IMG/VR virus record: IMGVR_UViG_3300031857_000057
Span: 1 to 64,000 of that record
DNA from: a virus
Direction: 5' to 3' (one strand)
Length of the DNA stretch: 64,000 nucleotides
In this document: in pieces, positions 1-45,518 of the stretch
Position numbering within the stretch: position 1 is the stretch's first letter
Layout of the letters: each line of letters starts with the position of its first letter
Position numbers and translations under genes: made by a program
The notes under the pieces: generated by a model
Database searches by the model: none
The model's input: the letters and a program-made list of their open reading frames with translations, nothing else
Told to the model about the DNA's origin: nothing

Positions 1-386
1 CTGTAGATGTAGCTTTAGATAAATGTTTAAAACATTATGAATCATTGTGGCATTTAAAAATGAATTATAAAGAAGCTTTTAATTTTGTAAAATATCTACC
101 AGGAAAATATTTTAAAATTCATGGAGACCATGGCCCATACTATACCTGTACAATTTCTGCAGTTGTTTATTTAAATGATGATTATGAGGGTGGAGAAATA
201 GAGTTTATAAGACAAGGGCTAGTCGTTAAACCAAAAGCTGGTGACATAGTAATGTTTCCATCTAACTTTGTATATGAGCATGCATCTTTAGAGGTAAAGT
301 CAGGAACTAAATATTCAGTTGTTATTATGACAGATTACAATGAATTTTATCATACGGGTGGATATCATGAATATGTATCAAAATGA
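1..386 (+). CDS. 2OG-Fe(II) oxygenase, prolyl 4-hydroxylase-like (5' truncated by window)
   Basis: Frame is open from the window edge. Motifs HGD, YLNDDYEGGEI, distal H in YEHASLEVKSGTKYS. Confidence 0.9.
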   Translation, partial: VDVALDKCLKHYESLWHLKMNYKEAFNFVKYLPGKYFKIHGDHGPYYTCTISAVVYLNDDYEGGEIEFIRQGLVVKPKAGDIVMFPSNFVYEHASLEVKSGTKYSVVIMTDYNEFYHTGGYHEYVSK

Positions 387-28081: not shown

Positions 28082-31000
28082 TTGGCTGATGTAAATGCCG
28101 AAATTGGCGTAAATATAGATACGTCTAGTGCATTAGCACAGCTAAAATCGCTTCAAAGAGAAATAGCAAGGTTTCATTCATCTGTAGCAAGAAGTACAGA
28201 TGCAGCTGCACTTGCACAACGTGATCTGCAGAAGAACTTTATAAATGGCGTAAATGCTATTCAAGGGTTCTCTGCAGAATTACGTACAGTTAGAACTACA
28301 GCAGAAAACTTTTCAGATTCTTTAGAACGCAACAAGTTTTCAATGCGGGAATACTTTAGATATTCTGCAGCTTCAACTAAAACATTTGGTAGATTTTTTC
28401 GTTCTGAGTTAGATACAGTAAATAAGGTAGCTTTAGAAAATGTAAAGAGGCTACAAACTCAATATATTAAGATGGGCCGTGATGCAAACGGTGCAATGAA
28501 AGCTATTGCAGTCATGCCCACAAAGCTTGATTTAAGCAATGTTTCAACTCAGCTACAAATAGCAGCACAAAAACAAGCTTTATTTAATCAGCTTGTAAAA
28601 CAAGGATCTACAAATCTTCTCAACTTTGGTAAAAATACACAGTGGGCTGGTCGTCAGCTCATGGTTGGTTTTACTCTTCCATTAATTGGGTTAGGAACTG
28701 CGGCGACAAAAGCTTTTATGGATATGGAAACTGCTGCTATAAAATTTAAAAAAGTTTATGGAGATTTATTTACAGCACCAGAAGAAACACAATTTGCGCT
28801 TGAATCTATTCAGGCACTTGGAAAAGAATTTACTAAGTATGGTATTGCTGTATCTAATACTGTTGCATTAGCTGCAGAAGCAGCAGCAGCTGGTTTTTCT
28901 GGATCTGATTTACAAGCACAGGTAGCGCAAGCAACAAGACTTCAAGTACTTGGTCAGGTTGATCAACAAAAAGCACTTGAAACAACAATATCGTTACAAA
29001 ATGCTTTTAGGATTTCTTCTGTAGACTTAGCTGATGCAATTAACTTCCTTAACGCAGTTGAAAACCAAACTGTTGTATCGCTTGAAGATATTACTACTGC
29101 TATTCCAAAAGCAGCACCAATCGTAAGAGAGCTTGGCGGAGATATTAAAGACTTAGCATTCTTTATGGCCGCCATGAAAGAAGGCGGTATTAATGCATCA
29201 GAAGGTGCAAACGCATTAAAGTCTGGTCTTGCATCACTTATTAATCCTTCAGATAAGGCAAGAGGAATGCTCAATGATATGGGCATTGATATTGATAATA
29301 TTGTAGAAAGTAATGTTGGAAATCTAAAAGCTACTGTAGTAGAGTTTGCAGAGGCATTAGATGATCTTTCTGATTTACAAAGACAAAGGGCTATTGAACA
29401 ACTATTTGGTAAGTTCCAGCAAGCTCGTCTCTCTGCATTATTTGATAACGTAATTCGTGATGGTAATCAAGCAGCTCGTGTTCTTGATTTAGCAACAGCT
29501 TCTATGGAAGATTTGGCGGCATTGGCAGAAAAAGAATTAGGTCTTACTGCAGATAGCGCAATGAATAAGTTCCGTGCTTCTATAGAAAGCCTTAAAGTTT
29601 CTTTAGTACCAATAGGTCAAACATTTTTAGAAGTTATTACTCCACTACTTGATAAGCTTAATGGTTTATTAGAATGGTTTAATGGTTTATCTGATACAAG
29701 CAAAAAAGTAATTACAAAAGTCATATTTTATATAGGTGGACTTGGCCCAGTATTACTAATGACTATTGGTTTGATGGCTAACTTTATTGCCAATGGTATT
29801 AAAGGTTTAATGCTTTTAAGAAATGGATTTTTAAGATTAACTGGACAATCTAAAGTTTTAGGTGAGCAAACAAACTTTTTAAGTGTAGAACAGCAAAATG
29901 CAGTAGCAGCAGCAGCATCTCTTGAACAATCACACATGAAGCTTCAACAGGCATTTACTGGAGAAGCGGCTGCAGTAAGAAGCCTTATAGCAGAGTATCA
30001 AAGAATGGTTACTGCACAAAATGCAGCAGCTACAAGATTCCCTGGAATGATGAGTCCAGGATTTAAAGTTAAAGGATATGAAAAGGGTGTTGTTTCGGTT
30101 CCAGGACCTAAGGGAGCAGGAGATATTGTTCCATCAATGCTGTCTCCTGGAGAAGCGGTAATTCCTGCAAAAATGGCTCAAAAGTATGCACCTTTAATTA
30201 ATGCAATGATATCTGGAAATATTCCAGGATTTAAAAATGGCTTACCAAGTATTTACGGAGGACAAGAAAGATTGCTCGGTCCCTACACAATGCTTGCACC
30301 AGGTAATACGCCTGGAGGCTTTGGACTTAGTAAAGAATTTTTAGATACAGCTGGATTTGCAGAATCTCTTAGAAATACTGCAGCTGTTGCAGGATCTATT
30401 GAATCAAATATGAGGCTTACTGATAAAACAATACTTTCAATGATTCAGCAAGCAGCTCCATATACTGATGAAATTACAGACCAGCTAAGAATTGCATCAC
30501 GAGAAATGGCTGAATCTGGTCAACAAGCAAAACATATTAGTGAATTGTTTGCAAGAAAAAGACAAGAGATATCTTTAATATTAGATAGGTTGTCAGCTAC
30601 AGGAGCTTCAGGAGCTGGTATTGCATCTGGTATGAGAAAGTTTGCCTACGCCACTAATGCAGATATTATGAGTGGGGGCAACGTAAGAGTTCCAGGAGTA
30701 ACGATTGATCCAAATACTGGAGAAGTAGTTAGAAGCACACACTATAGTATAAGAAGTGGAAAAGCTTCAAGATTCCAGGTAGGAGTTCAAAGGGCTAACC
30801 GATTAGCTCCAATATCATCTACAGAAAAATTAACAAGAGCTCATGTTCTACCAGAATCAAGAGTTCTTGCTGGTGGAATAAGACGACTCGGTGGAGCTGG
30901 TATGGCCCTTCCACCACAAATGCGTACTGCTGCAGAAGCAGAGATACAACGTAGAAGTGCATTAATAGGAGAAAAAATTGCTCTTTCTGCAGTAGCAGCA

Positions 31001-33973
31001 GCTGCAACAGGTGCAGGAACTGCATCTCCATCAAGGAAAACTATTCCAATTGGAGAAGATATTGCTCGTGGTCTTCAGGTTGGAATGATGAACCAAATAG
31101 ATGAGACTAGGGCAGTGGCTGACAGATTATCAAAAACTGCATCCACAATGAAAAGCCCAACAACTGGAAAACCAATAACACAACGAGATATTGCAACAAA
31201 TAAAAAATTAACTGGTCCTCAAATTGGAAAGATGGCAAGTCCTCTTATTTTGCCTGGAGTTCAGCCTTTGCCAGGTGGAAAAATAATACTTCCTGGACAA
31301 GAATCAAAAACATCAAGTGGCTTAATACTTCCTGGACAGCAACAAAAATCATCTAGTGGACTTATACTTCCAGGACAAACTGGAACTCAAAAAGGACTTA
31401 TTATTCCAGGGACACCAAGAACAATTCCTGGACCAAATGTTCCATTAATAATTCCAAGTCAAAGAAGGACTGGCGCAGCGCCTGGAGGATTAATTGATCC
31501 AAGAACTGGTACTTACTTTCCCAAAACAGTTCCTGATTCACAAGCCCCTGGTAAAGTATTAAAAGATACTCAAGAAGGACAGAAACAAAAAACAAAAAGA
31601 TTTGCAAAGGCTCGTGGTGCAGTAGGTAAAAGAGTTACATCAATGCGTGGCAATGCAATGGGTGCTGGTATGGGAGTATCTGCATTAGTATTTGCATTAT
31701 CTATGCTTCCTGGAAAAATTGGTCAACTTGCTAATGCCATCATGCCTGCTGTATTTGCGTTACAGGCATTTGCAATGCTTGCTGGAGCAATAGGTGGCAT
31801 TGGCGCTGCAGTAGTAGCGCTTGGTGTAGGCTTATTTATGTTAAATCAATCAGCTAAAAAATCTGCTGATGAACTTAAAAAGGCTGCAGATTTAGAAGTA
31901 CAAGCTCGTGTAGGTAGTGCAAAATCTATACAAGAGTACGCAGAGTTTACTGGAAGAGCACTTCCTAGTGCAAGAGAATTTAGTAGAAATAATCGTCAAC
32001 TTATATCTGCAAGTGGTCAAGCAGTAGAAAGATTTGCAGATTTTTATAAGCAAGAAGGCAATACATCTACAGCAATAATAAACGAAGCTGCAGTAAGAGG
32101 AACAGATGTTGGAATGCAGGCAGCGGCTATGGATGTTGCACAAAGAGCAGCTATTTTTGGTTTATCTCCACAAGATATTGCAGCAAATATTAAAGCTGCT
32201 TCAGATCTTATTGGTGCAGATCAAGTAGAGTTGAGAGCAAAGGTACAACAGATTCTTGCTCCAAATGGAGAGGATATTACAAAAGAGCCTCTAACGGTAG
32301 AAGCAAGAATGAACTTCTTACAGGAAAGCTCAAAACAAAATATACAAGCAATTCAAAAAGATATTTTAGAACTATCTAAGATTAAGCTTCCAAAATTAAA
32401 TATAAATCCACTTTCTGGAGATATGGCAGTAGGAGGGGTTGGATTATTTAGAAGAGCTATAGATACTGGTAAGAGAATGTCTAGAGGAGAAAGTTTCTCC
32501 GATGCGATGACCACCATGACATTCCAAGAATTAAAACAAGCAGCTGGATATCAACAAGGAATTAATGAATCGTATTCTGGTGGTTTTGGCAGTGAGGTAA
32601 TGGGTGCACTTAAACAAGGTGCAAGAAATATTATGGGGTATGGTTATGAAATTGACACACTTAAGGCATACAAAGATATTCAAGGGTCTGTTTCATCTGC
32701 AACAATGCAATTGTCTATAGCATTTACACAACAAAAAGAATCTTTGGCACTTCTTAATCAACAGTATGCCGATGGATTAATTACTAGGGAACAGTATGAC
32801 GCTGGCCTTGCAACCTCACTGTCAAATTTTGATTTGTTGACAGAAAGTAGCAAGAGTCTTATTAATGAATTAAATAAGATTGATCCAGAAGGTACATTAG
32901 CTGCAGATGCCCTTAAGGGTATGGGAGAAGAGGCATTTTCTGCTTTAAAGAAAACTAATCCAGAGCTATTTAAGAGAATAACAAAATCTATGAAAGAGCT
33001 TGATGGTGCAGCTCAAATTGATATTATGATGGGGTATGCAAAAGGAAGTTTAACAATTCTTGATGTTGCTAGAATTCCAGAAGTACTAAAAGCCATAGAT
33101 GGAATGACTGCCGATGCAGCAATTAACTTTATATTAAACTCAGATTTAAGTCAAGGGGCTAAAGGTAATATGACTGCTGGCCAAGCTCAAGCAGAACTAG
33201 ATAGAATAAATAAAGAACTAGAAGGCGCAGCTTATTATGGTGGTGAAAGAGGAGCATTATTACGAAGAAAAGGAGAAATGGAACTTGCTTTAGCAAATGC
33301 AAAAAAAATGGAAAAGGATGCTCTTGGAGTTAACCAAACAGGACCTCTTGATACAGATACTGGTAAAGGTGCTAATAAGGCTGCATCTGGTATTGATAAT
33401 CTTACAAAGGCTTATGATAAAGAATTAGAAAGATTAAAGAAAAAAAGAGATGCACTTAAGGAAGTTAATGATGAATTAAATCGTCAAAACCAATATCAAA
33501 TGAAACAAATGGATCTTCTTAATCAGGCTGCAAAAGCGAAAATGACAGGTGATTACTTAGCTGCTGCCGCATTACAGCAGGAATCAATGATGGAGGGTGC
33601 TAAATTTGCCAGTGAGAGCAAAGTTATTCAAATGGACAAATTGATAGGTGCTGTTGAAGATAGAAAAGCAAAAATAGAAGATTCTAAAACAATAACTACT
33701 GCAGATAAAAAGTTTTTAGGAAAAATAAAATCTGGAAATTATCAGAGTATTGCTCCTATGCCAACAACGCCAGCAGTTGGTTTTGCAGCCAAGGGTATTG
33801 CTCAGGAAACTGCTACAACACAAATGGCAGGCGGAGCAGTGTATAATGTAACAATGAATGTTTCAGGTGGAAATCCAGAAGAAATCGCAACCAAGGTGAT
33901 TGCTAAGATTAAAACAATTAGTAGCAAAAATAATAAGAGTAATGGCGTAACGTCGTTAGGAACACCACGATAA
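28082..33973 (+). CDS. Tape measure protein
   Basis: 1963 aa, Ala-rich helical; TP901-type core (A..EGGI.ASEGANALKS); hydrophobic segments; position after the chaperones. Confidence 0.93.
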   Translation: MADVNAEIGVNIDTSSALAQLKSLQREIARFHSSVARSTDAAALAQRDLQKNFINGVNAIQGFSAELRTVRTTAENFSDSLERNKFSMREYFRYSAASTKTFGRFFRSELDTVNKVALENVKRLQTQYIKMGRDANGAMKAIAVMPTKLDLSNVSTQLQIAAQKQALFNQLVKQGSTNLLNFGKNTQWAGRQLMVGFTLPLIGLGTAATKAFMDMETAAIKFKKVYGDLFTAPEETQFALESIQALGKEFTKYGIAVSNTVALAAEAAAAGFSGSDLQAQVAQATRLQVLGQVDQQKALETTISLQNAFRISSVDLADAINFLNAVENQTVVSLEDITTAIPKAAPIVRELGGDIKDLAFFMAAMKEGGINASEGANALKSGLASLINPSDKARGMLNDMGIDIDNIVESNVGNLKATVVEFAEALDDLSDLQRQRAIEQLFGKFQQARLSALFDNVIRDGNQAARVLDLATASMEDLAALAEKELGLTADSAMNKFRASIESLKVSLVPIGQTFLEVITPLLDKLNGLLEWFNGLSDTSKKVITKVIFYIGGLGPVLLMTIGLMANFIANGIKGLMLLRNGFLRLTGQSKVLGEQTNFLSVEQQNAVAAAASLEQSHMKLQQAFTGEAAAVRSLIAEYQRMVTAQNAAATRFPGMMSPGFKVKGYEKGVVSVPGPKGAGDIVPSMLSPGEAVIPAKMAQKYAPLINAMISGNIPGFKNGLPSIYGGQERLLGPYTMLAPGNTPGGFGLSKEFLDTAGFAESLRNTAAVAGSIESNMRLTDKTILSMIQQAAPYTDEITDQLRIASREMAESGQQAKHISELFARKRQEISLILDRLSATGASGAGIASGMRKFAYATNADIMSGGNVRVPGVTIDPNTGEVVRSTHYSIRSGKASRFQVGVQRANRLAPISSTEKLTRAHVLPESRVLAGGIRRLGGAGMALPPQMRTAAEAEIQRRSALIGEKIALSAVAAAATGAGTASPSRKTIPIGEDIARGLQVGMMNQIDETRAVADRLSKTASTMKSPTTGKPITQRDIATNKKLTGPQIGKMASPLILPGVQPLPGGKIILPGQESKTSSGLILPGQQQKSSSGLILPGQTGTQKGLIIPGTPRTIPGPNVPLIIPSQRRTGAAPGGLIDPRTGTYFPKTVPDSQAPGKVLKDTQEGQKQKTKRFAKARGAVGKRVTSMRGNAMGAGMGVSALVFALSMLPGKIGQLANAIMPAVFALQAFAMLAGAIGGIGAAVVALGVGLFMLNQSAKKSADELKKAADLEVQARVGSAKSIQEYAEFTGRALPSAREFSRNNRQLISASGQAVERFADFYKQEGNTSTAIINEAAVRGTDVGMQAAAMDVAQRAAIFGLSPQDIAANIKAASDLIGADQVELRAKVQQILAPNGEDITKEPLTVEARMNFLQESSKQNIQAIQKDILELSKIKLPKLNINPLSGDMAVGGVGLFRRAIDTGKRMSRGESFSDAMTTMTFQELKQAAGYQQGINESYSGGFGSEVMGALKQGARNIMGYGYEIDTLKAYKDIQGSVSSATMQLSIAFTQQKESLALLNQQYADGLITREQYDAGLATSLSNFDLLTESSKSLINELNKIDPEGTLAADALKGMGEEAFSALKKTNPELFKRITKSMKELDGAAQIDIMMGYAKGSLTILDVARIPEVLKAIDGMTADAAINFILNSDLSQGAKGNMTAGQAQAELDRINKELEGAAYYGGERGALLRRKGEMELALANAKKMEKDALGVNQTGPLDTDTGKGANKAASGIDNLTKAYDKELERLKKKRDALKEVNDELNRQNQYQMKQMDLLNQAAKAKMTGDYLAAAALQQESMMEGAKFASESKVIQMDKLIGAVEDRKAKIEDSKTITTADKKFLGKIKSGNYQSIAPMPTTPAVGFAAKGIAQETATTQMAGGAVYNVTMNVSGGNPEEIATKVIAKIKTISSKNNKSNGVTSLGTPR
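31241..31510 (+). repeat. (G/K/P)-(L/I)-I-(L/I)-P-G peptide repeats inside the TMP
   Basis: LILPG, IILPG, LILPG, LILPG, LIIPG plus degenerate LIIPS and GLIDP. The DNA unit ATACTTCC(T/A)GGACA recurs three times. Confidence 0.85.
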
Positions 33974-34902
33974 TGGCATTTTTATTAAATTCTGGAATTG
34001 CTGTATCTCTTAATAATACTCCAACAACTGCAACATATGCGTCTGGCGGAGCTGGAGCAGCAACCACTGTTGTTATATCTGCAGCAAACTCTAATATAAA
34101 AATTGGTCAAAAAATTGCTGGAACTGGACTAGCCGCAAATTCAGTAGTTACTAATATTGCAGGAACAACAATAACATTTTCTCCAGCAGCAACATCGCAG
34201 ATATCTGGAACACTTACATTTAGTACGAACTGGTATCATTTAACTGATCATAATAGAAATGAAATTAATATTAATCCCATAGTTATTGAAAAAGAATCAC
34301 GAATGGCAAATGGAACTTTAAGAAAGTTTGTTGTTAGTAAAAAAGATATTGTTTCAGTATCCTGGGATCTTGTTCCAACATCACATACAAACCATACGGC
34401 ACAAATACAGTCAGGAACTGTTGTTGGAAATACTATTGTTTTTGTAACCTCTGCAGCTCATAATTTTACAACATCTTCATCAATCGTTGTTTCTGGCTTA
34501 TCTCCAAGTCCATTTAATATATCTGGTGTAACACCATCTAGCGTAACATCAACAACGTTTATAGTTCCAAAACCTTCAGCAGCAACAGGGGTATCAACTG
34601 GAACTGGTTTTGCACAAGATGTGACCAAAGTTTCTATAACAACGATAGATGGAAAATATGGTGCGGGATGGATTAATGCATTTTATAATGCAAATCATAA
34701 TATTCCTATCTATGTAAAAGTAACTTCTGCTGATTATACTACTCCATCAAGTGGATCTATGCCATCGGATAGCGCACATACATCGGCATTAACTGGAGAA
34801 AAGATTTATCAAGCCTTTATTACAGGGTTTTCTAAATCAATTAGAAAGAGAACAAGAACGACAGACTATGTAGATATGACTCTAGAGTTTACGGAGATCT
34901 AA
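33973..34902 (+). CDS. Distal tail (Dit-like) protein with two inserted Ser/Thr-rich beta modules
   Basis: Directly after TMP. The core LTDHNR...RMANGTLRK...SW...D..LEFTEI is interrupted by two low-complexity inserts. Confidence 0.6.
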   Translation: MAFLLNSGIAVSLNNTPTTATYASGGAGAATTVVISAANSNIKIGQKIAGTGLAANSVVTNIAGTTITFSPAATSQISGTLTFSTNWYHLTDHNRNEININPIVIEKESRMANGTLRKFVVSKKDIVSVSWDLVPTSHTNHTAQIQSGTVVGNTIVFVTSAAHNFTTSSSIVVSGLSPSPFNISGVTPSSVTSTTFIVPKPSAATGVSTGTGFAQDVTKVSITTIDGKYGAGWINAFYNANHNIPIYVKVTSADYTTPSSGSMPSDSAHTSALTGEKIYQAFITGFSKSIRKRTRTTDYVDMTLEFTEI

Positions 34903-37900
34903 TGCTTAGCACTGTTAGTTCATCAATTTTTACTGATTCTAATTCTATTAAAATGACACCAGTGGTGTCTGCTGAATGGAATCAAAATGTTTTTAATCCA
35001 CCGTATGCAACAGTTGCTGGAGATGGAACCTTAAATACTAATTTAACTACATCTGCAACTCTTGTTAATATTACTGGGGCAGATGCAAAACCAGGGTTTA
35101 CAACAAAAAAATATGTAATGACAGCAGATGAAGATACTGTTACGTATACCGTTACTCCTACATCATCAAGCAGTGCATTTAAAGTTATTACTTATATTAA
35201 AACAAACGAAAACTATCCAATCATTGCAAACATATTGGCAAAAGGATCTTTTAGTCAGTTTGGCTCCTCTAGCGTAGAAATTAATTCTTTTGGATGGACT
35301 AAGGTTGAAACATTTATTGGAGGATCTTCGTCATCAGATACTATATCTAGTTTTACGTATACATTTTCTTTTAATAGATTTAGTACTGACGATGATCTTC
35401 CAGAAGTATTTTTTACAGTTCCAGAAGTATATGCTGTAAGTTATTTTAACTATCAATACAATTCTGTATGGCCAACAGACTCTATTTTTACAAACTTTAG
35501 ACCAGGGGAATCATACGTTAATACTGGAAGCTCAAAGTTTTCTTTTCCAAATAACTTTAGACAGGTAACTAAAAATCTTATTGATGGATATGCCTCAGAT
35601 GTATATATGCCAGTAAGCCCAATTATACAAAATCCTAAAACTGTCAATGTTGCTCCACCAGTTCCGTTTTATAAAAATGGATTACTAAGCGATATGAATC
35701 AGTATAAATATTTTGTTTCAGACACTTCTAATAAATCAATAACAGGTCTATACGACAAGGCTGGCATATACACAAATAAGTTAGTTATTAAATTTAATAC
35801 TTTGATGGCTGTTCCAACAATTAATATATACATTGATGGAACAATCATAAATGTAGATGGATCAACATCAATTAACTTAAATACAAATGCTGGTAAAGAA
35901 AATAACGGTATCAGAGAAGATGCAGGCGTACTGGTATTATATTGGACTGGATCTGCATGGACCAGAACAAGATGGTCCTCTATGCCAACATTTAATTCCT
36001 CTGGCGATATTGATAAAATAACAACACTTAATAAAATTCGTGTTACACAAACATCTAATACTGCAAGATCAGCTTTCTCAGCTTACGAGTCTGAATCTTT
36101 AGATTCTGACATAACAAGAATGCAGATAGTTGAACTATCCCCCAGAATTGAAGTTGACTTATCAGATTATATTTTAAGTTTTTCTGTTAAAAAATCTTTA
36201 GATGCAAAAGATACGTATCTTCCAATTTCATCAATTAACTCTGATGATGCATCAATTGTTTTATCTGGCATACCGCTTGGAACAATATCATCATTAGTGC
36301 CCGTATTTTCTAGTCAAAGCAATAGGGCTAATAATATGCTAAGGGGCATGTTTAAAAAGAATATAAAATTTTACATTAATTATTATTTAGAAGATTACTT
36401 TGACAACTCCACAAGATCGCTGGTATCACCAGATACTTTAATTCCAGGTGGTATATTTTATTCTGATAGCTGGGATGAAACTGATGTAACTGAAGTATCA
36501 ATTCAGGCATTTGACGTGGGTAGATATTTACAATCAACTCAGGTAGCGGATTATGTATCAAGCTTGAGAAGCGTAATAGATGTTATATCAAATATGCTAG
36601 ATCTTTCTGGATTTACCGATTATGATTATAACTCTTTGTATGATGTTTGCAACAATAAAAATGTTCCATTAGACCTTGCATACTTTTATGTAAATTCTCA
36701 AGATACAACAATCATAGATGCTTTAAACCAAATATTTCTTCCATATCAGATTGGTGCATTCATTGATGAGTTTGGAGTCATGAAATTTTTAAATCTTGCA
36801 GATATTGTTGGAAATAAAACAGCAAACATTATTATTAATGAAAGCAATATCGCAGATAGTGGATATTCCGTAACAAACAAAGCTAAACCAGGAAAAATAT
36901 CATTAAGGTATCAATCTCCTAAAATTAAAAATTCCGCATCTTTAAATACACTTGAGATAGATCCAAACTCTCCATCATTTATATATACAACTGGTAATGA
37001 AATTGTTTGGGCACAACAAAACTCAGACTCTGTTGGAATGAACTATTTAAATGAAGATATGAATGATACACAAAGTTATTTTGTTATTGATAAGAATGAT
37101 CCACTTGATATATTCCACACATTTAGTATTAATACAAACGGATATGCATTTATAGAAAATGAAATAGTATCTTTTATGTATAAAGAATTTGAGTTTAGTG
37201 ATGAAGTTAATTCTTCTACAGTGTCGGTAAAAAATGAAATTGAGTTTCAGGGAGAACGCAATCGCTTTACTAAAAAATATTTAGTTGGATTAAAGACAAG
37301 TGATGGAACAGAAAAGTTTGAATATAATGCGCTAACAGATTTCACTGGACGTATTACCAATATCCAACGTGGAATGTTTGGAACTAAGGTCGCTCCACAT
37401 ACAGTTTTAACATCTGCCAATGCTTCTAGTAAAGCAATTACTTGTAAAAATATATCTAATATATATGAAATTGTTGGAGACGGAACATATAGTGCTGCTA
37501 CAGATAATCAATTTAAGGCAACAACAACAAATTCTGGTAAGGTAATATTTTATCCTACAACTGAAAGAAGCACTGTCATTACAGAATCTGGAACAGAATA
37601 TTATAAAACATATTCTACAAAGTTTAACTTTGAAAATAATTTAGAACTAGTATCTGGAGGATTATTCTTTAATGCTGGTGTTGGGCAATCAAATGCCTTT
37701 AATGGTACATTTTTTATAGAACTTGTTAGATATAATACTTTGCAAAAAGATGGGGTAACGTGGAACAATCCACCAGTATATAAATATCTTATTGTTGTAT
37801 ATAATGTAGTTGCTGAGCAAAATAATGTTATTGCATATGCAGATGTTACAACTGAGGCCTTATCAATTATTAATAATTTTGAAAAGGTTTTAGAAAAAGA

Positions 37901-39038
37901 AGTAACGGAGGCTGGAGTATCATATACAGCAGTTTCAGATCCAAGATATTCATCGTTTAACCTAAGAGCTACAACATATAAATCTAATGAGGGTGATGGA
38001 GAGGTTGAAGAAGGCACAACAAATCTATTATCAATATTTTTAAATAACATTGAAATTGGAAACTGGGAAGTTCCAGTTGCTGGTGTTGGAGTTACCTGGA
38101 TCCCAATAGATTTAAATCCAGAAACTGGATTACCTAAAAAGATTAGTTTTGAAACAGATCTATCTTCAGGAAATATTTTTGGTGGATTTATATCAACAGA
38201 CCCAGTATTTATAGACGGTATAACATACCCATCTCAATCTGGAACTGTTGCAGGATCAATTAGAGAAATATACGCAACGCACAAAAGCTTAAAAGAAAGA
38301 AGCGTTAATTATTATTTTCAAGATAGAGAATTTTTAAATGGCATGGTACAAGGACAAAATATATTTTCTAGATCTAAGTCCTACATGATGCAAACTAAAC
38401 CAGAGATAGTTGGAATTAATTCATACGATATTCAATACACAAGCCCTGCTGCGGTTTCTGTAGATGTTTGGCCCATCAAGTATCTATTAAAGTACATACC
38501 TGGAACAGAAATCGTTGACCAACAATATGTTCAAAAAAAGAAAGTTGATGAATATGCTTTGTCATATTCTACTATTATGAATACTGGATTTAGAGCAAAG
38601 TTTGCGATTGCAAACAATTCAACCCATATGGTATATTTGAAGAAAGACCCTACAGAAACTATTCAGGGAACCTCAGTGCTTAATCTTTGGACACAAGAAG
38701 TTATTGCACCATCTGACCCAGAAATTATAGAAAAGGTATTAGATCCAGCAAACATATCTGAAACAATTCAACTAGACTCAAATTGGATTCAGTCAAAAGA
38801 ATCTGCAAATAAACTAGTTAATATGATAGCAAGATCAATTGATATTTTTTCACAAGACATAACTGTAAGCATTTTTGGAAATCCCTTAATTCAGGTTGGA
38901 GATGTTGTTCAACTTAGCTATAATTTAAGCGGTATTAGTGATCAAAAATATCTAGTTCATTCTGTATCTCATAGCTTTGATGGTGGTTTAAACACTACTA
39001 TTGTCTTAAATACTGTTGATAAAGGTGTGAGTGTTTAG
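34902..39038 (+). CDS. Large tail tip/hub protein
   Basis: 1378 aa; FIDEFGVMKF; C-terminal IFGNPLIQVGDVV hub motif. Confidence 0.75.
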   Translation: MLSTVSSSIFTDSNSIKMTPVVSAEWNQNVFNPPYATVAGDGTLNTNLTTSATLVNITGADAKPGFTTKKYVMTADEDTVTYTVTPTSSSSAFKVITYIKTNENYPIIANILAKGSFSQFGSSSVEINSFGWTKVETFIGGSSSSDTISSFTYTFSFNRFSTDDDLPEVFFTVPEVYAVSYFNYQYNSVWPTDSIFTNFRPGESYVNTGSSKFSFPNNFRQVTKNLIDGYASDVYMPVSPIIQNPKTVNVAPPVPFYKNGLLSDMNQYKYFVSDTSNKSITGLYDKAGIYTNKLVIKFNTLMAVPTINIYIDGTIINVDGSTSINLNTNAGKENNGIREDAGVLVLYWTGSAWTRTRWSSMPTFNSSGDIDKITTLNKIRVTQTSNTARSAFSAYESESLDSDITRMQIVELSPRIEVDLSDYILSFSVKKSLDAKDTYLPISSINSDDASIVLSGIPLGTISSLVPVFSSQSNRANNMLRGMFKKNIKFYINYYLEDYFDNSTRSLVSPDTLIPGGIFYSDSWDETDVTEVSIQAFDVGRYLQSTQVADYVSSLRSVIDVISNMLDLSGFTDYDYNSLYDVCNNKNVPLDLAYFYVNSQDTTIIDALNQIFLPYQIGAFIDEFGVMKFLNLADIVGNKTANIIINESNIADSGYSVTNKAKPGKISLRYQSPKIKNSASLNTLEIDPNSPSFIYTTGNEIVWAQQNSDSVGMNYLNEDMNDTQSYFVIDKNDPLDIFHTFSINTNGYAFIENEIVSFMYKEFEFSDEVNSSTVSVKNEIEFQGERNRFTKKYLVGLKTSDGTEKFEYNALTDFTGRITNIQRGMFGTKVAPHTVLTSANASSKAITCKNISNIYEIVGDGTYSAATDNQFKATTTNSGKVIFYPTTERSTVITESGTEYYKTYSTKFNFENNLELVSGGLFFNAGVGQSNAFNGTFFIELVRYNTLQKDGVTWNNPPVYKYLIVVYNVVAEQNNVIAYADVTTEALSIINNFEKVLEKEVTEAGVSYTAVSDPRYSSFNLRATTYKSNEGDGEVEEGTTNLLSIFLNNIEIGNWEVPVAGVGVTWIPIDLNPETGLPKKISFETDLSSGNIFGGFISTDPVFIDGITYPSQSGTVAGSIREIYATHKSLKERSVNYYFQDREFLNGMVQGQNIFSRSKSYMMQTKPEIVGINSYDIQYTSPAAVSVDVWPIKYLLKYIPGTEIVDQQYVQKKKVDEYALSYSTIMNTGFRAKFAIANNSTHMVYLKKDPTETIQGTSVLNLWTQEVIAPSDPEIIEKVLDPANISETIQLDSNWIQSKESANKLVNMIARSIDIFSQDITVSIFGNPLIQVGDVVQLSYNLSGISDQKYLVHSVSHSFDGGLNTTIVLNTVDKGVSV

Positions 39039-39575: not shown

Positions 39576-41912
39576 ATGGCAAAAGCAAAATATAACTCTC
39601 CATTTACTGTTGGTAAAAGACAGACGTTATATCTTGATGCAGATGATCCAAGAGTAGAGGGATTTGAAGCAGGCATATCAGCTTCAAGGGCAGGTGCAGA
39701 AATTGTTATTGTTAATCCAGGTAATGCTGGATTATTAGTTGGATCTGCAGCATCTGCTAGTCCTAAAAGATATCCATCCTCTGCATCTAACCCAAAAGCA
39801 TCAGAAGGAAAAACTCCAACAGATATAAGTAATTTATCTGCTGAATGGCAAACAATATCTGGAGAGCCAGCATTAGTTTTTTCATTTGATATAGATTTAA
39901 CAAGTCCAGACAATGATGATGTTGATGCTTTTATATATACTCTAAATACTGGATCTGGAATAACTCCTCCAATATCTTTTACAAAATTAAATAAAACTTC
40001 TGACGCACAAGAACTTATATTTTATTATTCAGACAATATAAAGTTTTTTGGTATTTTTCAAACAACATTTACTGAATTTAAAGTAAGATCTCGTGATAAA
40101 AGTGGTAATGTTGGGCCAGAAGCAACGCTAACCGTTATTCCATCATATGAAAATGATTTGCCAGCACCAAGCATTACTGTTACATCAATAGCGCAAGGAT
40201 ATTCTGTAGATTGGAATCCAATTGTAGAGTTATATAATTATATATCAGTAGAAGAGGTTATATCTAATGCATCAACTGATCCAGCAGCTGGATATGAGCA
40301 GGCATATTTAAATAGTATAAAACCAGCAGTAATCACAACTCCAACACTAGAGGCAAGATGGGTTAGAGCAAGATTTACAGATAAAGCTGGTACATATGGA
40401 CCATATTCAACAGCATACAAAGTAACACCTACTAATCCAGTTAGTGCAGACAACATTCCACCAGATGCTCCAGCTTCAGGATCAGTAACCGCTGGTATTG
40501 ATAATTCCACTGGCGCTACTATTGGATTTAATGCCTACGTTGACATATCCTGGTCAGCGGTATCCGATGCCACCTTAAAAGGATATAGGATTAGATTTAG
40601 AGAAGACGGAACTAGTAATCCATATTCGTATGTAGATTCACCAGGAACTGGAACATCTTTTAGATTAAACGGCTTATCTATAGGAACAACATATCAAATA
40701 GGAATTGCTTCATATGATGAATTTAATAATACATCTTCTGCCTACACCTCTATAGGAACAGCAATAGCAAATGGAACTCCTTTCATAGGAAAAAATGTAA
40801 CAACTGTCGGCTATTTTGGAGCCTCAGCTACTGGAGATACTGGAACATTTAAGTTTGGATACGGAGTACAGGACAGCGGTGGAACAAAACGAGGACTAGT
40901 ATTTAATTCAAATAACTACTGGTACATAGATTCAGCACAATCAGCATTATTTAAACTAGGCGGAGATACAAATAACTATATACAATGGGATGGAACAACA
41001 TTTATTATTCAAGGTGACCTTAGAGCACAAAAGGGTCAATTTGATGGCAATGTTGAAATAAAGTCTGGTGGATCATTATACTCTGGAAATGTTATTGCTG
41101 GAAGTTTATCTGGTGCTGGATTTATTTTAAATACTAGTGGTTTAACTTTTAATTCTTCTTCTGTAAATGGCATAACAACTATTAATGGGTCAACAGGTCT
41201 TTTGACTACAAAATCTGCCAATATTGGTGGATGGGATGTAACTGCTAATACAATAACAAATACAAGCGGTAGTGGTGTGGTTACTCTTGATTCTACAAAT
41301 GCACAAATAAGATTAACAAGCGTTAACTATACAGCAGGTATAGCAACACCCAATACAAATTCTACATCTGATATTGTATTTTGGGCAGGTGGAGCAAGAA
41401 GTACCGCAGCAGCATTTTATGTTACCGCAAACGGTATATTAAATGCAAATGGAGCCATATTGCAAGGTAGATTAACTACTGGGGCATCTCAGGGTGGGGC
41501 AGAGATGAAGTTTGGAACCAGTGTTGGTGCTAATGGCGAAGATGGATTATATATAAACTCTGCAAATTATTGGTATTCAAATGCAGAGTTTAGCATTGGT
41601 GGAGGTATTTTAAACGGCACTCATGATTCCGTAATAATAGACTTGTTCAATGGTAACGCTAGTTTCTATATGGTACAAATGCCAACATCGGATGATGACA
41701 GTTGGGCAGGAGATCCAACTATTACAAAAAGAACATCAGATGATAAACTTGTTCAGGGCAGAAGGTTTATTTATCTTTCCACGATTACTGGAAGCACAAC
41801 ACCAACAAATCCTACGGGATGGAACAATACAACAAAAACAGGAACAATTACAGATAGCAATGGTACATCACGCAGCGTCAAGGCTGGTGATATACTAATG
41901 ATTCAGGAATAA
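39576..41912 (+). CDS. Fibronectin type III-containing tail protein
   Basis: PPDAP...ISWSAV...GYRIRF...LNGLSIGTTYQIGIASYDEFNN; later Gly-rich beta repeats (IGGW). Confidence 0.8.
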   Translation: MAKAKYNSPFTVGKRQTLYLDADDPRVEGFEAGISASRAGAEIVIVNPGNAGLLVGSAASASPKRYPSSASNPKASEGKTPTDISNLSAEWQTISGEPALVFSFDIDLTSPDNDDVDAFIYTLNTGSGITPPISFTKLNKTSDAQELIFYYSDNIKFFGIFQTTFTEFKVRSRDKSGNVGPEATLTVIPSYENDLPAPSITVTSIAQGYSVDWNPIVELYNYISVEEVISNASTDPAAGYEQAYLNSIKPAVITTPTLEARWVRARFTDKAGTYGPYSTAYKVTPTNPVSADNIPPDAPASGSVTAGIDNSTGATIGFNAYVDISWSAVSDATLKGYRIRFREDGTSNPYSYVDSPGTGTSFRLNGLSIGTTYQIGIASYDEFNNTSSAYTSIGTAIANGTPFIGKNVTTVGYFGASATGDTGTFKFGYGVQDSGGTKRGLVFNSNNYWYIDSAQSALFKLGGDTNNYIQWDGTTFIIQGDLRAQKGQFDGNVEIKSGGSLYSGNVIAGSLSGAGFILNTSGLTFNSSSVNGITTINGSTGLLTTKSANIGGWDVTANTITNTSGSGVVTLDSTNAQIRLTSVNYTAGIATPNTNSTSDIVFWAGGARSTAAAFYVTANGILNANGAILQGRLTTGASQGGAEMKFGTSVGANGEDGLYINSANYWYSNAEFSIGGGILNGTHDSVIIDLFNGNASFYMVQMPTSDDDSWAGDPTITKRTSDDKLVQGRRFIYLSTITGSTTPTNPTGWNNTTKTGTITDSNGTSRSVKAGDILMIQE

Positions 41913-41915
41913 ACA

Positions 41916-44396
41916 ATGCCAATTTACAGACTTAATTCTTCTGGACAGTGGAAGAAGTTCTCAAGCCTTTACCGTCTAAACAACTCTGGTGTTTGGAAAA
42001 GATTTTCTGCATGGTATAGGCTAAACTCATCTGGTATTTGGAAAAAATTATTTTCTTCAGAAGAAGGGCCGAGCATAGCTCAACAAGTTGAAATATCTCA
42101 ATCAACAAATTCAACTACTGGACTAGTTACATTAACTGGAACAAATTATCATTGGACAAATTCAACTTCACTTACTTATTATTTTCAATGGTATAACTCA
42201 GGTAGTTGGCAAACGATAGATGTTGGATCAATAACAAATCCAGCATCAGGATCTTCTAATACTAAAACCTATGTAGTTCAGTCATATGACACTAGCACAA
42301 ATTCAGATAATTTATATAGATTCAGGGTTGTAGCTACAAATATTGTATTAACTAGCAGCTCTATAAGTAACACAACAACCATTAGTACTCCAAGGGATGT
42401 TATAAATGTAACCGCTTCACAAGTCGGAACAGATCTTCAAGCTAGTGTTTCATTTACGGTTGGATCATACACTGGTAGTGTAATAATTAAAAGATATAAA
42501 TATAGTGGGGGAACTTTACAAAGTACCACTGAATTTTATAAAACAACGGCTAGCCCAACAACAATAACACTTGATGAATACGGCAAACAATATAGATTTT
42601 CTGTTACACCATATACTGGCAATATTGTTTCTGGAAATGTTACTGGGTACCCTGGTAATGAAAGTTCATTAACAACTCAGTTTACGTCTAATTTTCCACC
42701 AACTCCAATACAAACTTCTAGCCCAACATTATCAAGTACTGGAAACGTTGTAATTGGAACTACTCTTACTGCAAACAGAGGAACTTATCAAAATAATACT
42801 ATATTTGATGGTAATCCAGATCTTGCAATACAAACACGAGTTTACGGGTGGGTATTTCCTGGCCCCACACTAACAAATGGAACTACAACAGCTCCGCCTA
42901 CACCAGACACAACATCTGGCGGTACACAGTCATTGCTTACTACACAACTTATGGTTAATTATACGTTCTATGCAGTTGATATAGTTATAGCAGCAGATGG
43001 TGCATCTACATACTATTATTATAGTGATTTAAATGCTCGTGCCTTCATCCCATCATTTTCAGACAACTTTAATAGACTTGCTGGAACTGGATCTCAAGGT
43101 CTTGGACAAACCAGCACTGGCAGTTGGTACTGGTCAACCAATGGCGGATTGTATGGACCACAAACACCGTCAATAAATACTAACAACTTTTCTTGGCAAT
43201 TAGATACAGAAGAAATATCTGGAAGGCAGGCCGTTGTTACTTACACCAATCCTTCTGTTGGAAATAGCGCAACTAATTATCCACTTAAAACTATAAATGT
43301 TGGAGATTCTAATGTTGCCTTAAAGGTATCTGTTTCTGATGGTGGCGGTGGGCCTGGCCTAGCTTTTTGGGTTACAAGTGCTGGCTCTTGGTGGGCAGTA
43401 GCACCAGATTATTCTAGCAGTAGCTCTACATCGTATTCATGCAATACCCCAGTAACTTCGTATTCTTGTTATACTCCAGTATCAGTAACTAGCTACACAT
43501 GTAATACTCCACAAACTATAACTACTTATGGTTGCGGCGGCAGCGCCTCCACTTCATTTTGTCCAGATGATTTTACTACAGAATATAATGCATTTACAGT
43601 AGGTAGAAGATGTAGTGGATGCTCAAGCACAACATCATATTCGTATTCTTGCGGAACAGATCAATATGTTTCAAACGATCCTGGAACAGTTGTTGCTTGT
43701 AATTCGCCATCACATAATGGGCAACCATGCTATAAGCTGTTTGTTGGAGAGTTTGGAATTCAGTGGATAGTAAGATATTGTAGTGTTAGTTCTACAACAA
43801 GTTATTCTTATTCAACAGTTAACTCAAGCACAACAAGTGGATGTACTGGTGGTCCAATTTCAACCGATGCATCTGGAACTGGTTGTGGAGGATGCACAGT
43901 GTCAAGTTCAACAGTTACTACGTGTACTGGTGGTCCAATAGGAACTAATTCAAGCGGATCTGGTTGTGGTGGATGTGGAGTTTCTTCTTCAACATCTTGC
44001 AGTGGAGGCCCAATATCAACAGATTCCAGCGGTTCTGGCTGTGGAGGATGTTCAGTTTCTTCTTCAACCACTGTAACATATACAAGTACAATTAAAATAT
44101 TATCTTCAGTTGGTAGTACTGTAACAAGTCAATACAGTCAAACAGTAGCCACTAGCAATTCTGCCTTTATTCCAATATATGGACTATCAGTTGAAACATC
44201 TAATAATACTATTACAGCAAAGGCATATTCAAATACAGCGGTTACAAATCAACTAGGATCAACTTTAACCGCTACCCCATCTAGTCCAACAAAATCCATT
44301 GCTGGTGATTCTGCTGTTGGTATAATTAATACTCCAACGGTAGCTAATAGAATAACTGGCAATAGACTTGACGATTTCGTGTATACTAATGTATAA
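41916..44396 (+). CDS. Tail adhesin: Trp repeats, Ig/FN3 domains, lectin-like tip with Cys-rich insert
   Basis: Three N-terminal YRLNxSGxWKx repeats; YRFRVVA and YRFSVTP strands; FSDNFNR...DDF beta-sandwich; 20 Cys clustered in one region. Confidence 0.75.
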   Translation: MPIYRLNSSGQWKKFSSLYRLNNSGVWKRFSAWYRLNSSGIWKKLFSSEEGPSIAQQVEISQSTNSTTGLVTLTGTNYHWTNSTSLTYYFQWYNSGSWQTIDVGSITNPASGSSNTKTYVVQSYDTSTNSDNLYRFRVVATNIVLTSSSISNTTTISTPRDVINVTASQVGTDLQASVSFTVGSYTGSVIIKRYKYSGGTLQSTTEFYKTTASPTTITLDEYGKQYRFSVTPYTGNIVSGNVTGYPGNESSLTTQFTSNFPPTPIQTSSPTLSSTGNVVIGTTLTANRGTYQNNTIFDGNPDLAIQTRVYGWVFPGPTLTNGTTTAPPTPDTTSGGTQSLLTTQLMVNYTFYAVDIVIAADGASTYYYYSDLNARAFIPSFSDNFNRLAGTGSQGLGQTSTGSWYWSTNGGLYGPQTPSINTNNFSWQLDTEEISGRQAVVTYTNPSVGNSATNYPLKTINVGDSNVALKVSVSDGGGGPGLAFWVTSAGSWWAVAPDYSSSSSTSYSCNTPVTSYSCYTPVSVTSYTCNTPQTITTYGCGGSASTSFCPDDFTTEYNAFTVGRRCSGCSSTTSYSYSCGTDQYVSNDPGTVVACNSPSHNGQPCYKLFVGEFGIQWIVRYCSVSSTTSYSYSTVNSSTTSGCTGGPISTDASGTGCGGCTVSSSTVTTCTGGPIGTNSSGSGCGGCGVSSSTSCSGGPISTDSSGSGCGGCSVSSSTTVTYTSTIKILSSVGSTVTSQYSQTVATSNSAFIPIYGLSVETSNNTITAKAYSNTAVTNQLGSTLTATPSSPTKSIAGDSAVGIINTPTVANRITGNRLDDFVYTNV
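43434..44070 (+). repeat. Nested Cys repeats: 3x YxCxTP ... 3x CxGGPIxTxxSGxGCGGCxVSSST
   Basis: Read directly from the translation; synonymous codons differ between copies. Confidence 0.9.
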
Positions 44397-44414: not shown

Positions 44415-44639
44415 ATGGAAACCCCCCCAATTAAATTAGCATTCATTATAGATAATGAGGTTGCTGATATTTTACATACTGATGAAAGATTGTCTGCGAT
44501 TTTTTTGAGCAATCCAGTTGTCTTAGATGTTACAGATAAGATTAATTTTAATCCAAATGCTGTTTTGCCTGGTATGATCTATAATCCTGAAACTGACGAG
44601 TATGTAATGCCAGAAATAACAGAAGGTGAAAATGTCTAA
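44415..44639 (+). CDS. Small protein, possibly an adhesin/fibre assembly factor
   Basis: Strong SD; G..Y.PET..Y ending is seen in small fibre-associated proteins. Confidence 0.55.
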   Translation: METPPIKLAFIIDNEVADILHTDERLSAIFLSNPVVLDVTDKINFNPNAVLPGMIYNPETDEYVMPEITEGENV

Positions 44640-44931
44640 AAGCCCTTGGCAGATATGGAAAGAAAAGCAGCCTGGAGATTCAGTAAGACCTTGGGATTTG
44701 ATTAATCCTAATATTGGTAGGGTAGATGATGAGACCTATAGGCTTAGATTTGAAGAAGGCTGCATGAAATGTCCATCTCTGATACAATTGACTAAGACCT
44801 GCAAAAAGTGTGGTTGCTTTATGACTGAAAAGGCAAAACTTCCACATGCTTCCTGCCCGCTGGGTAAATGGGGAGCAGTACAAGATGTACCAGATATTGT
44901 AGATGACGAGGGAAACATTATACAAAGGTGA
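44632..44931 (+). CDS. Cys-rich protein, DUF6171-like
   Basis: R...CMKCP.L....CKKCGCFM..K......CPLGKW. Confidence 0.7.
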   Translation: MSKSPWQIWKEKQPGDSVRPWDLINPNIGRVDDETYRLRFEEGCMKCPSLIQLTKTCKKCGCFMTEKAKLPHASCPLGKWGAVQDVPDIVDDEGNIIQR

Positions 44932-44934
44932 TTT

Positions 44935-45150
44935 ATGGAATTAACAAGTGATGAAAAAAGAGCCATCTTAGAAAGTCATATTAAAAATGCTTTGACAAAT
45001 ATTTATAATTTGCAGATCTCTTTACTTGCTGAACAAGCAAAAGAAAATCCTAACTCTGACATTGTAAATAATCTTTCAGAGCAAAAAACTAACGAAGAAG
45101 CAAAGCGAGATGTTTTGTTACAAGAGTTAGAGAATTTGCCAAATGACTGA
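44935..45150 (+). CDS. hypothetical coiled-coil protein
   Basis: SD AAGGTG; helical. Confidence 0.6.
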   Translation: MELTSDEKRAILESHIKNALTNIYNLQISLLAEQAKENPNSDIVNNLSEQKTNEEAKRDVLLQELENLPND

Positions 45151-45340
45151 AAAAAATGAATTAATTGCAATTGTATTGCAGCAGCGAATTGGTGAACTGG
45201 TTGCTAACTACGAAACTCAAATTGCAGTATTGCGGGCAGAAATAACAGAAATGATTAATAATAATAAACAAAAAGCTGCAGATAAATATTCTGAAGATTT
45301 ATTATCAAAGATAGCAGACAATAAAAATGATGTCTTGTAA
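45143..45340 (+). CDS. hypothetical coiled-coil protein
   Basis: Overlapping operon arrangement. Confidence 0.6.
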   Translation: MTEKNELIAIVLQQRIGELVANYETQIAVLRAEITEMINNNKQKAADKYSEDLLSKIADNKNDVL

Positions 45341-45518
45341 AAGATGCAGTGGCAGAGTTTTTGTAGATAGACAATATAGTAGCGCTATTCATTTAGAAAC
45401 ATTTTGTATCATGTGTGGTCAAAGAAAATTTTTTCATCCACCACAAGATAGTGCGGAGGGTTTGTGGCTACTGGAAAAAGAAAGATTGTTAGCCAAGAGT
45501 ACAATAACGACCCTGTAA
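45327..45518 (+). CDS. Zn-ribbon protein
   Basis: CKRC...CIMCG. Confidence 0.65.
   Translation: MMSCKRCSGRVFVDRQYSSAIHLETFCIMCGQRKFFHPPQDSAEGLWLLEKERLLAKSTITTL

Follow-up and report, generated by a model that had tools for sequence, protein, structure and literature searches.

The last gene of the tail module in the IMG/VR virus record IMGVR_UViG_3300031857_000057 (positions 41916-44396, plus strand; assigned from the open reading frame (ORF) call and tail-gene order) encodes an 826-residue protein, very probably the receptor-binding tail protein or distal tail fibre of an uncultured siphovirus, in which all 20 cysteines are confined to a single insert in a C-terminal domain of predicted lectin fold. 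We consider it probable that this insert folds back on itself as a disulfide-bonded ladder, with a four-cysteine unit and a four-cysteine knob at its far end (modules U and X) as the specificity-determining tip, and that the insert is swapped as a cassette. The window referred to below is the stretch of DNA that was analysed, i.e., the first 64 kb (64,000 nucleotides, ~36% GC) of the 103.5-kb record, which has a completeness rating of 95%; coordinates are positions in the window, and all features of the gene lie on the plus strand.

According to this proposal, the fibre would consist of a conserved N-terminal anchor, an FN3-like shaft and a C-terminal ConA-like lectin-fold domain, one β-hairpin of which would be extended by the self-contained insert of ~220 residues. 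The chain would ascend via three short strands, A1-A3, each of which terminates in one cysteine, turn through U and X, and descend via three-cysteine loops, B1-B3, with short Ser/Thr strands between them. Each rung would be a split copy of U, in which the A cysteine is bonded to the middle B cysteine (C1-C3 in U) and the first B cysteine to the last (C2-C4), and the rungs would be nested and antiparallel, i.e., A1-B3, A2-B2 and A3-B1. The ladder would hold U and X off the lectin domain, and specificity would change when the complete insert is exchanged at the conserved flanks and when rungs are gained or lost.

Cysteine layout and predicted fold of the insert-bearing domain

A script count places the cysteines at residues 509, 518, 529, 540, 549, 566, 569, 579, 595, 605, 622, 643, 657, 660, 670, 684, 687, 695, 709 and 712, and none outside residues 509-712 (43440-44051), a span so short that random placement would yield it with a probability of ~4e-11. 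The 213 residues around the cysteines include 48 Ser, 34 Thr and 31 Gly. The modules follow one another in the order A-A-A-U-X-B-B-B, with YxCxTP (A) starting at residues 507, 516 and 527, and CxGGPIxTxxSGxGCGGC (B) at residues 643, 670 and 695; the flanking motifs are GSWWAVA at residue 490 and TIKILSS at residue 725. The original prediction, made from the DNA sequence alone, is accurate with respect to the cysteine count, its confinement to a Ser/Thr-rich insert, the motifs and flanks, and the succession of three A modules, two four-cysteine units and three B modules. It also describes the first inner unit correctly as C/C/CxxC, whereas the second is a different four-cysteine module, X. Other virion proteins encoded in the window are nearly devoid of cysteine, with none at all in the portal, the major capsid protein, the tape measure, the 309-residue protein that follows the tape measure, and the FN3 fibre protein.

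The ascending arm (43389-43511), delineated from the motifs and the predicted local distance difference test (pLDDT) of AlphaFold2 models, consists of a base strand (residues 492-509) and the three one-cysteine A strands (Cys 509, 518 and 529). At the turn of the stalk lies U (43527-43622; Cys 540, 549, 566 and 569), a contiguous unit with the spacing C-8-C-16-C-2-C and pLDDT 82-90, and 65 such modules are found across the relatives of the protein. It is followed by X (43644-43781; Cys 579, 595, 605 and 622), a knob module of ~45 residues with the distinct spacing C-15-C-9-C-16-C, which is flanked by two SSTTSYSYS strands, is modelled with pLDDT 90-96 and recurs in relatives, also within otherwise different insert types. 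The descending arm (43842-44051), recognized from the motifs and a DNA repeat, comprises the three B loops (Cys 643/657/660, 670/684/687 and 695/709/712), each succeeded by a VSSST-type strand. In the DNA, the B loops form a tandem repeat with a period of 75, 2.9 copies and 75% matches, and given this level of matching, the B repeats of the gene are old.

AlphaFold2 was run on the full-length protein and on a crop of residues 380-826 with 57 aligned sequences (mean pLDDT 79). In the crop, the insert lies between the two halves of a jelly roll: the first comprises residues 380-491 (43053-43388) with the conserved GGGGPGLAFWVTSAGS at its end, where G479, G481, W485 and S491 are invariant in a 25-sequence alignment, and the second is contained, together with the return strand 714-732, in residues 713-826 (44052-44393), which belong to the structurally aligned core. 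The crop model aligns through these flanks to ConA-like jelly rolls (VIA-align Z 15.1-14.6, 152-187 aligned residues, root-mean-square deviation 2.8-3.5 Å), in agreement with the suggestion in the original prediction that the insert sits between two strands of one C-terminal β-sandwich. The top matches are a galactocerebrosidase lectin domain, the receptor-binding domain of mycobacteriophage TM4 gp23 (Z 15.0), CBM66, a GH43 C-terminal domain and a baseplate chain of mycobacteriophage Douge (Z 14.6), and an ESM Atlas structure search with the flanking domain returns the families GH43_C2, DUF1349 and 3keto-disac_hyd. Judged from the model, the flanking domain is a ConA-like lectin/glucanase jelly roll by fold, without a sequence-level family match. 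Only the flanks (~175-190 residues) align, and the ~225 insert residues have no counterpart in any solved chain. Foldseek finds nothing below E 1e-3 for the C-terminal model in the PDB, and its strong matches in BFVD (E 3e-11 to 9e-22) are to six proteins from uncultured phages, all of them uncharacterised, the named matches being weak (E >0.009).

The base strand 492-509 (pLDDT 90-95 in the crop) and the return strand 714-732, with pLDDT rising to 97, are about equal in length and both confidently modelled. If they pair as a hairpin, which is proposed because of their equal lengths and the jelly-roll topology, Cys 509 of A1 would be placed beside Cys 709 and 712 of B3.

Proposed nested pairing of the arms and probable nature of the cross-links

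A word-indexed search yielded 36 relatives of the protein, a profile search of 1.8 billion representatives 1190, and scans of viral and metagenome contigs 91 loci. The jelly-roll motif GxGxAFW occurs in 69 distinct proteins, and in 69 of 69 a cysteine-rich insert is found at the same hairpin, the smallest having 8 Cys in 30 residues and the largest 40 Cys in 352. The inserts were tokenised by cysteine spacing, with U defined as contiguous C-6..13-C-9..18-C-1..3-C, X as the knob-type module with four cysteines, V as another four-cysteine unit, and B, p and A as modules with three, two and one cysteine, respectively. In every cleanly parsed architecture, from 1/1 to 8/8, A and B are equal in number and reside on opposite arms. 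This applies to AAAUXBBB (3/3; five proteins including the 826-residue protein), AAAAUXBBBB (4/4), AUXUUB (1/1), BBBBUAAAA (4/4), BBBBVUpAAAA, BBBVUpAAA (3/3), BBVVUpAA (2/2), UUBVXpA (1/1), UBVXpA and BUVUpA, and to the hand-parsed L036, which has eight odd-cysteine modules and, after them, eight A strands. V and p are coupled as well, in that a cleanly parsed V is always followed by one U or X and then by p.

The lengths of the segments between modules carry information on which A module faces which B module. If a denotes the number of residues that separate one A cysteine from the next, and b the linker from one B module to the next, reading the two arms in opposite directions gives a=b or a=b+1: a=(8,10) and b=(9,7) in P0001, P0008 and P0013; a=(10,10) and b=(9,9) in P0010 and P0014; a=(8,8,8) and b=(7,7,7) in P0011; a=(12,14) and b=(13,12) in P0018; and a=(12,12,14) and b=(13,12,12) in L003 and L006. 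In the P0010 type, a1 is 2 residues longer than in the P0001 type and so is its nested partner b2, while b1 is unchanged. Having been derived from the P0001 type, the rule was subsequently applied to L036, an unrelated case with eight rungs, where b=(10,8,11,10,13,13,15) compares with a reversed a=(11,9,12,11,14,14,12). Here a=b+1 is exact for the six outer of seven positions, which only 8 of 5040 orderings match equally well, and the parallel order fails badly. The reversed match supports the nested order A1-B3, A2-B2 and A3-B1 put forward in the original prediction, and the spacing pattern is as would be expected of a two-stranded antiparallel ribbon in which a separate disulfide closes off every B loop.

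That one A and one B together make up one four-cysteine unit, as had been claimed, is seen in P0017, where A adjoins B across a C-8-C gap identical to that between C1 and C2 of U; A plus B is thus a split U. The bonds within U are indicated by U-like modules that still begin with aromatic-x-C and end with NVGxRC but have neither C2 nor C4; such modules occur in at least five lineages (P0027/P0040, P0042/L051, P0043, P0071, P0026/P0039/P0065, and one unit in the tandem array of P0053). Since C2 and C4 are lost jointly and C1 and C3 are kept, the bonds are likely to be C1-C3 and C2-C4. Carried over to the split rungs, this assigns the A cysteine to the middle B cysteine and has each B loop closed by its own outer two cysteines. 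The bonds predicted in this way from sequence comparison are 509-709, 695-712, 518-684, 670-687, 529-657, 643-660, 540-566 and 549-569, plus two in X.

Several points speak against the ladder. Structure prediction, which had been named as a way to examine the pairing, yields high confidence in the base hairpin, U and X but does not confirm the middle rungs, with pLDDT 41-52 for A2, A3 and all three B loops in the crop and <35 throughout the insert in the full-length run. The anticipated equality of A and B numbers among homologues holds at 3/3, 4/4, 2/2, 1/1 and 8/8 but fails in P0165, which has six odd-cysteine modules and eight A strands; this protein is identical to L036 (1390-3216) save for two near-identical three-cysteine modules (34 as opposed to 40 Cys), and the inequality may reflect a real deletion or a repeat collapsed in assembly. 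Furthermore, the rule rests on ~12 architectures, many inserts are left unparsed by the module definitions, and these definitions were set after viewing the data. In an oligomeric fibre, pairing could instead take place between chains, from the A arm of one to the B arm of the next. The cytoplasm in which virion proteins fold is reducing, and all five units of the 826-residue protein have four cysteines, which is compatible with zinc. Finally, that the tip rather than the lectin face contacts the receptor is something we infer.

The low model confidence in the A and B regions and the unequal numbers in P0165 would both be accommodated if there were no cross-arm ladder and the insert were a flexible, Ser/Thr-rich string of small beads with local cysteine pairing, the equality of A and B merely reflecting an even total. 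Many relatives indeed consist purely of tandem four-cysteine units (UUUU, UUUUUU) without A or B. We nevertheless regard such a string as very unlikely. Parity alone permits 1/3 or 2/4, yet the counts are equal in all clean parses except P0165, and with 3/3 or 1/1, local pairing leaves cysteines unsatisfied. Moreover, the reversed spacing match, i.e., the change of a1 from 8 to 10 together with that of b2 from 7 to 9, and the eight-rung case, goes unexplained without physical pairing of the arms.

Parity also bears on the chemistry of a cross-arm ladder. The number of cysteines after the jelly-roll motif is even in 64 of the 69 proteins, and among the odd cases is one ORF truncated at a contig end; of the 64 even counts, 33 are divisible by four and 31 are not. 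After clustering at 60% identity, counts are even in ~42 of 46 clusters, the differences within the 11 all-even clusters amount to 2, 4, 6 or 8 cysteines, and two clusters also contain an odd-count member, one of which is cut by the contig end. Because of the even parity, and because half of the even counts are not divisible by four, disulfides are favoured over Cys4-zinc sites: paired cysteines appear to fit the family, whereas Cys4 metal sites would fit poorly as a family-wide rule. Knottin modules have six cysteines in three knotted disulfides, and those found here have four cysteines (U, X and A+B) or one, two or three. Lanthionine-type cross-links between Ser/Thr and Cys, suggested by the abundance of these residues in the insert, were considered and rejected, since that chemistry does not demand even cysteine numbers.

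The original prediction had suggested zinc binding as one way for the knots to form, and a specific version of this idea is that the five units of the 826-residue protein are structural Zn(Cys)4 sites, in which an A cysteine and three B cysteines chelate one zinc. Such sites would give rise to the A=B rule as well and would allow folding in a reducing cytoplasm; each unit in this protein has exactly four cysteines, four of the units end in CxxC, and a conserved small cysteine protein of metal-binding type is encoded two genes downstream. However, besides the 31 even counts that are not multiples of four, two-cysteine and six-cysteine module sets are common, and variants with only C1 and C3 persist in several lineages. 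The last two cysteines of the four-cysteine unit are 0, 1, 2 or 3 residues apart in relatives (CC and CxC included), which is unfit for one zinc knuckle, and each unit has one CxxC where a zinc ribbon would have two knuckles. The environment of the particle, furthermore, is oxygenated water. We therefore consider zinc unlikely, both for the units of this protein and across the family, and prefer the disulfide-bonded ladder.

Exchange of the insert and probable function of the tip

Comparison with two relatives reveals a reciprocal mosaic with breakpoints at the conserved flanking strands. L002 is 82-100% identical to the 826-residue protein in residues 1-480 (78-92% at the nucleotide level), 25-38% in the insert and 55-77% in the C-terminal part, whereas L047, the contig of P0008, is 24-69% identical in residues 1-480, 78-98% in the insert (72-83% at the nucleotide level) and 28-50% in the C-terminal part. 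The position of the breakpoints marks the insert as an exchangeable cassette. Within one insert type, the ratio of non-synonymous to synonymous substitution rates (dN/dS) is 0.12 at dS 0.98, which corresponds to purifying selection, and the insert is neither invariant, disordered nor mutationally hypervariable. Our data do not lend support to the earlier notion of hypervariability by mutation; diversity arises by swaps of whole cassettes. In agreement with the accompanying proposal that variation proceeds without a reverse transcriptase, none was found in the 95%-complete genome: PF00078 has no match in the 103.5-kb record, where the control matched three genomes and template and variable repeats were not searched.

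The number of rungs differs among close relatives, as foreseen for an extendable stalk: P0010 is 3/3 and P0011 is 4/4, with near-identical flanking strands beside the insert. In P0011, A2 is the same as A3 and B2 has the same core as B3, which points to tandem duplication in each arm and not to self-insertion of a unit. Lineages in which B comes first and A last, moreover, are not producible by insertion into the C1-C2 loop. Repeated insertion of a four-cysteine module into its own loop, the origin originally envisaged, is not borne out by these observations, and arm-wise duplication together with cassette exchange appears to fit the sequences better.

Exchange of the insert is also relevant to what the ladder does. 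It could be real and nevertheless serve mainly as a rigid, protease-resistant spacer or shield, with the ConA-like domain binding the receptor, probably a glycan. This would be consistent with the purifying, not diversifying, selection on the insert and with the likeness of the flanks to carbohydrate-binding jelly rolls and phage receptor-binding domains (Z 11-15); cell-wall glycan binding by such domains is reported for Douge, whose baseplate protein BppU has a glycan-binding carbohydrate-binding module (PMC13033339), although the matched Douge chain is not established as that module. It is, however, the insert and not the lectin core that is exchanged as a unit between otherwise divergent or near-identical proteins, which is the usual signature of a specificity determinant, and the cysteine-rich inserts borne by all 69 jelly rolls are very different in content. 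A spacer role is therefore rather unlikely in our view, and we favour the U/X knob as the part that determines specificity.

The insert design is absent from the solved structures, curated families and literature searched. The C-terminal domain of TM4 gp23 (PDB 9n6a) and the Douge baseplate chain (PDB 8zdo) share the jelly-roll fold of the flanks over ~175 aligned residues and the distal position in a siphovirus tail, but sequence identity is 6-13% and the ~225-residue insert is present only here. A two-stranded β stalk that emerges from a β-sandwich loop and carries a small disulfide-rich knob, with even and variable cysteine numbers, is known from the bovine ultralong heavy-chain complementarity-determining region 3 (CDR-H3) (PMC5994613, PMC12371982). 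The resemblance is functional only, as scaffold and origin are unrelated (a ConA-like jelly roll here and not an immunoglobulin VH domain), and bovine diversity stems from somatic mutation and not from cassette exchange with gain or loss of rungs. The stalk of the cow CDR-H3 is not known to have disulfide rungs, whereas the stalk here is composed of split four-cysteine units. The hairpin stack of granulin and the cysteine-rich modules of TNF receptors are elongated, mostly β disulfide ladders, in which modules with one to three disulfides are gained or lost. Those modules are contiguous in sequence, however, while the halves of a rung are here 130-200 residues apart, and no sequence or fold match between them and the insert was found with Pfam, PDB profile or Foldseek searches of the PDB. 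Tips of the Mtd type, diversified by diversity-generating retroelements, are likewise variable receptor-binding tips on tail fibres, but here no reverse transcriptase was found and the insert is under purifying selection within a type. Agrobacterium phage Milano provides a case of tailed-phage virion proteins with many structural disulfides; in the parts of the report consulted, the disulfide network prevents tail contraction and is not described as a modular, exchangeable fibre-tip insert (PMC10811340).

It is conceivable, and we propose it tentatively, that the insert represents an undescribed architecture, in which two-disulfide units are split between distant arms, form from one to at least eight rungs, travel as a portable cassette and are matured by the products of a 74-residue ORF and a DUF6171-like gene downstream of the fibre gene. 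Receptor-binding tips determine which bacteria a phage infects, and a fixed lectin-fold socket with interchangeable stalk-and-knob cassettes, the reach of which is tuned per rung, suggests a route to new specificities without a reverse transcriptase. If the predicted bonds are true, the ladder would be a new way of building a rigid protein rod from split mini-domains and a natural display scaffold comparable to the knobs of cow antibodies. It would also be a test case for the formation of ten disulfides in a protein made in the cytoplasm, possibly with the assistance of the two small genes that accompany it.

The family is abundant in contigs of uncultured phages and entirely unannotated. A search with the insert only recovered just the seven known members of the insert type present here. 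A further type with 32 Cys (L083, L086, L087 and L092) has five-cysteine modules first and four A-type strands last, and is unparsed. The smallest insert, again located at this hairpin, packs 8 Cys and 5 His into ~30 residues (L039, L040 and L041; ORF from 2800) and, unlike the large inserts, looks more like a metal cluster in composition.

Putative anchor, shaft, gene setting and small downstream genes

Residues 1-47 (41916-42056) hold a triple repeat, YRLNSSGxWKxF, of 15 residues per repeat with one invariant Trp in each (W12, W27 and W42 in the 25-sequence alignment; pLDDT is low), which we take to be the conserved element that attaches the protein to the tail. Of the 1190 profile matches, most have only the N-terminal part in common and differ widely in their C-terminal domains, a pattern consistent with a modular fibre, and the N-terminal part is probably a common attachment socket for interchangeable fibres. 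The shaft (residues ~50-370; 42063-43025) is a string of FN3/Ig-like β-sandwiches, modelled confidently in the full-length run (pLDDT ~90). It matches FN3 arrays in Foldseek (E 5e-7 to 1e-5), with the central fibre pb4 of phage T5 among the matches, and is assigned as an FN3 array on this structural match; a sequence profile search of the PDB gives weak FN3 matches only (E 0.004).

The gene closes a siphovirus morphogenesis block (18939-44396) of portal, protease, capsid protein and then tail genes, the latter including those for the tape measure (1963 residues; 28082-33973), a minor tail protein (1378 residues; 34902-39038) and an FN3-containing tail protein (778 residues; 39576-41912). Replication genes downstream of the block encode a DnaB-type helicase and a DnaE-type polymerase, the latter ~53% identical to Streptomyces phage polymerases. 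The 826-residue protein itself has no Pfam family (E up to 0.1) and no PHROG match, and tblastn and megablast searches of 50,697 phage records gave no match to it. Beyond the window, at 70700-70930, the phage genome holds a thioredoxin gene (PF00085, 72.9 bits); nothing was found tying it to the fibre, and ribonucleotide reductase would be an obvious client.

Two small genes follow the fibre gene on the plus strand. The first, a 74-residue ORF (44415-44639) identified from tblastn neighbourhoods, occurs beside a cysteine-rich jelly-roll gene in ~30 loci, on either side of the DUF6171-like gene, and is absent from cysteine-poor loci. The second (44626-44931) encodes a DUF6171-like protein of 101 residues with six invariant cysteines, CxxC-x9-CKxCGC-x12-CP (phrog_13558, E 2e-13); its score for DUF6171 (PF19668) is 20.8 bits as compared with a Pfam gathering cut-off of 27, and its nearest ESM Atlas clusters are 33-50% DUF6171. 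In the fetched loci that extend far enough downstream, 18 of 19 complete fibre genes with ≥6 Cys are followed at a distance of 230-495 bp by a DUF6171-like gene, as is 1 of 14 with ≤5 Cys. The association of the small genes is a lead and not proof, because the loci are interrelated, and on this basis the DUF6171-like protein is a candidate maturation factor of the cysteine-rich tip.

Two further small, probably helical genes (71 and 65 residues; 44935-45340) stand beside cysteine-rich and cysteine-poor fibres alike, the cysteine-poor loci that lack the 74-residue ORF retaining both, and serve as a control that overall gene order is conserved. They are followed by a 51-residue ORF (45327-45482) with two CxxC pairs in a zinc-ribbon-like pattern, which is retained at a downstream position in nine related loci. 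A DUF6171-like gene need not adjoin a fibre gene, and in Stenotrophomonas phage Marzo one is located among small hypothetical genes. In Synechococcus phage Sf-FP1, an unannotated DUF6171-like ORF (L094, ~4960-5130) lies in the fibre region, just upstream of the gene for a 1241-residue virion structural protein with 11 Cys.

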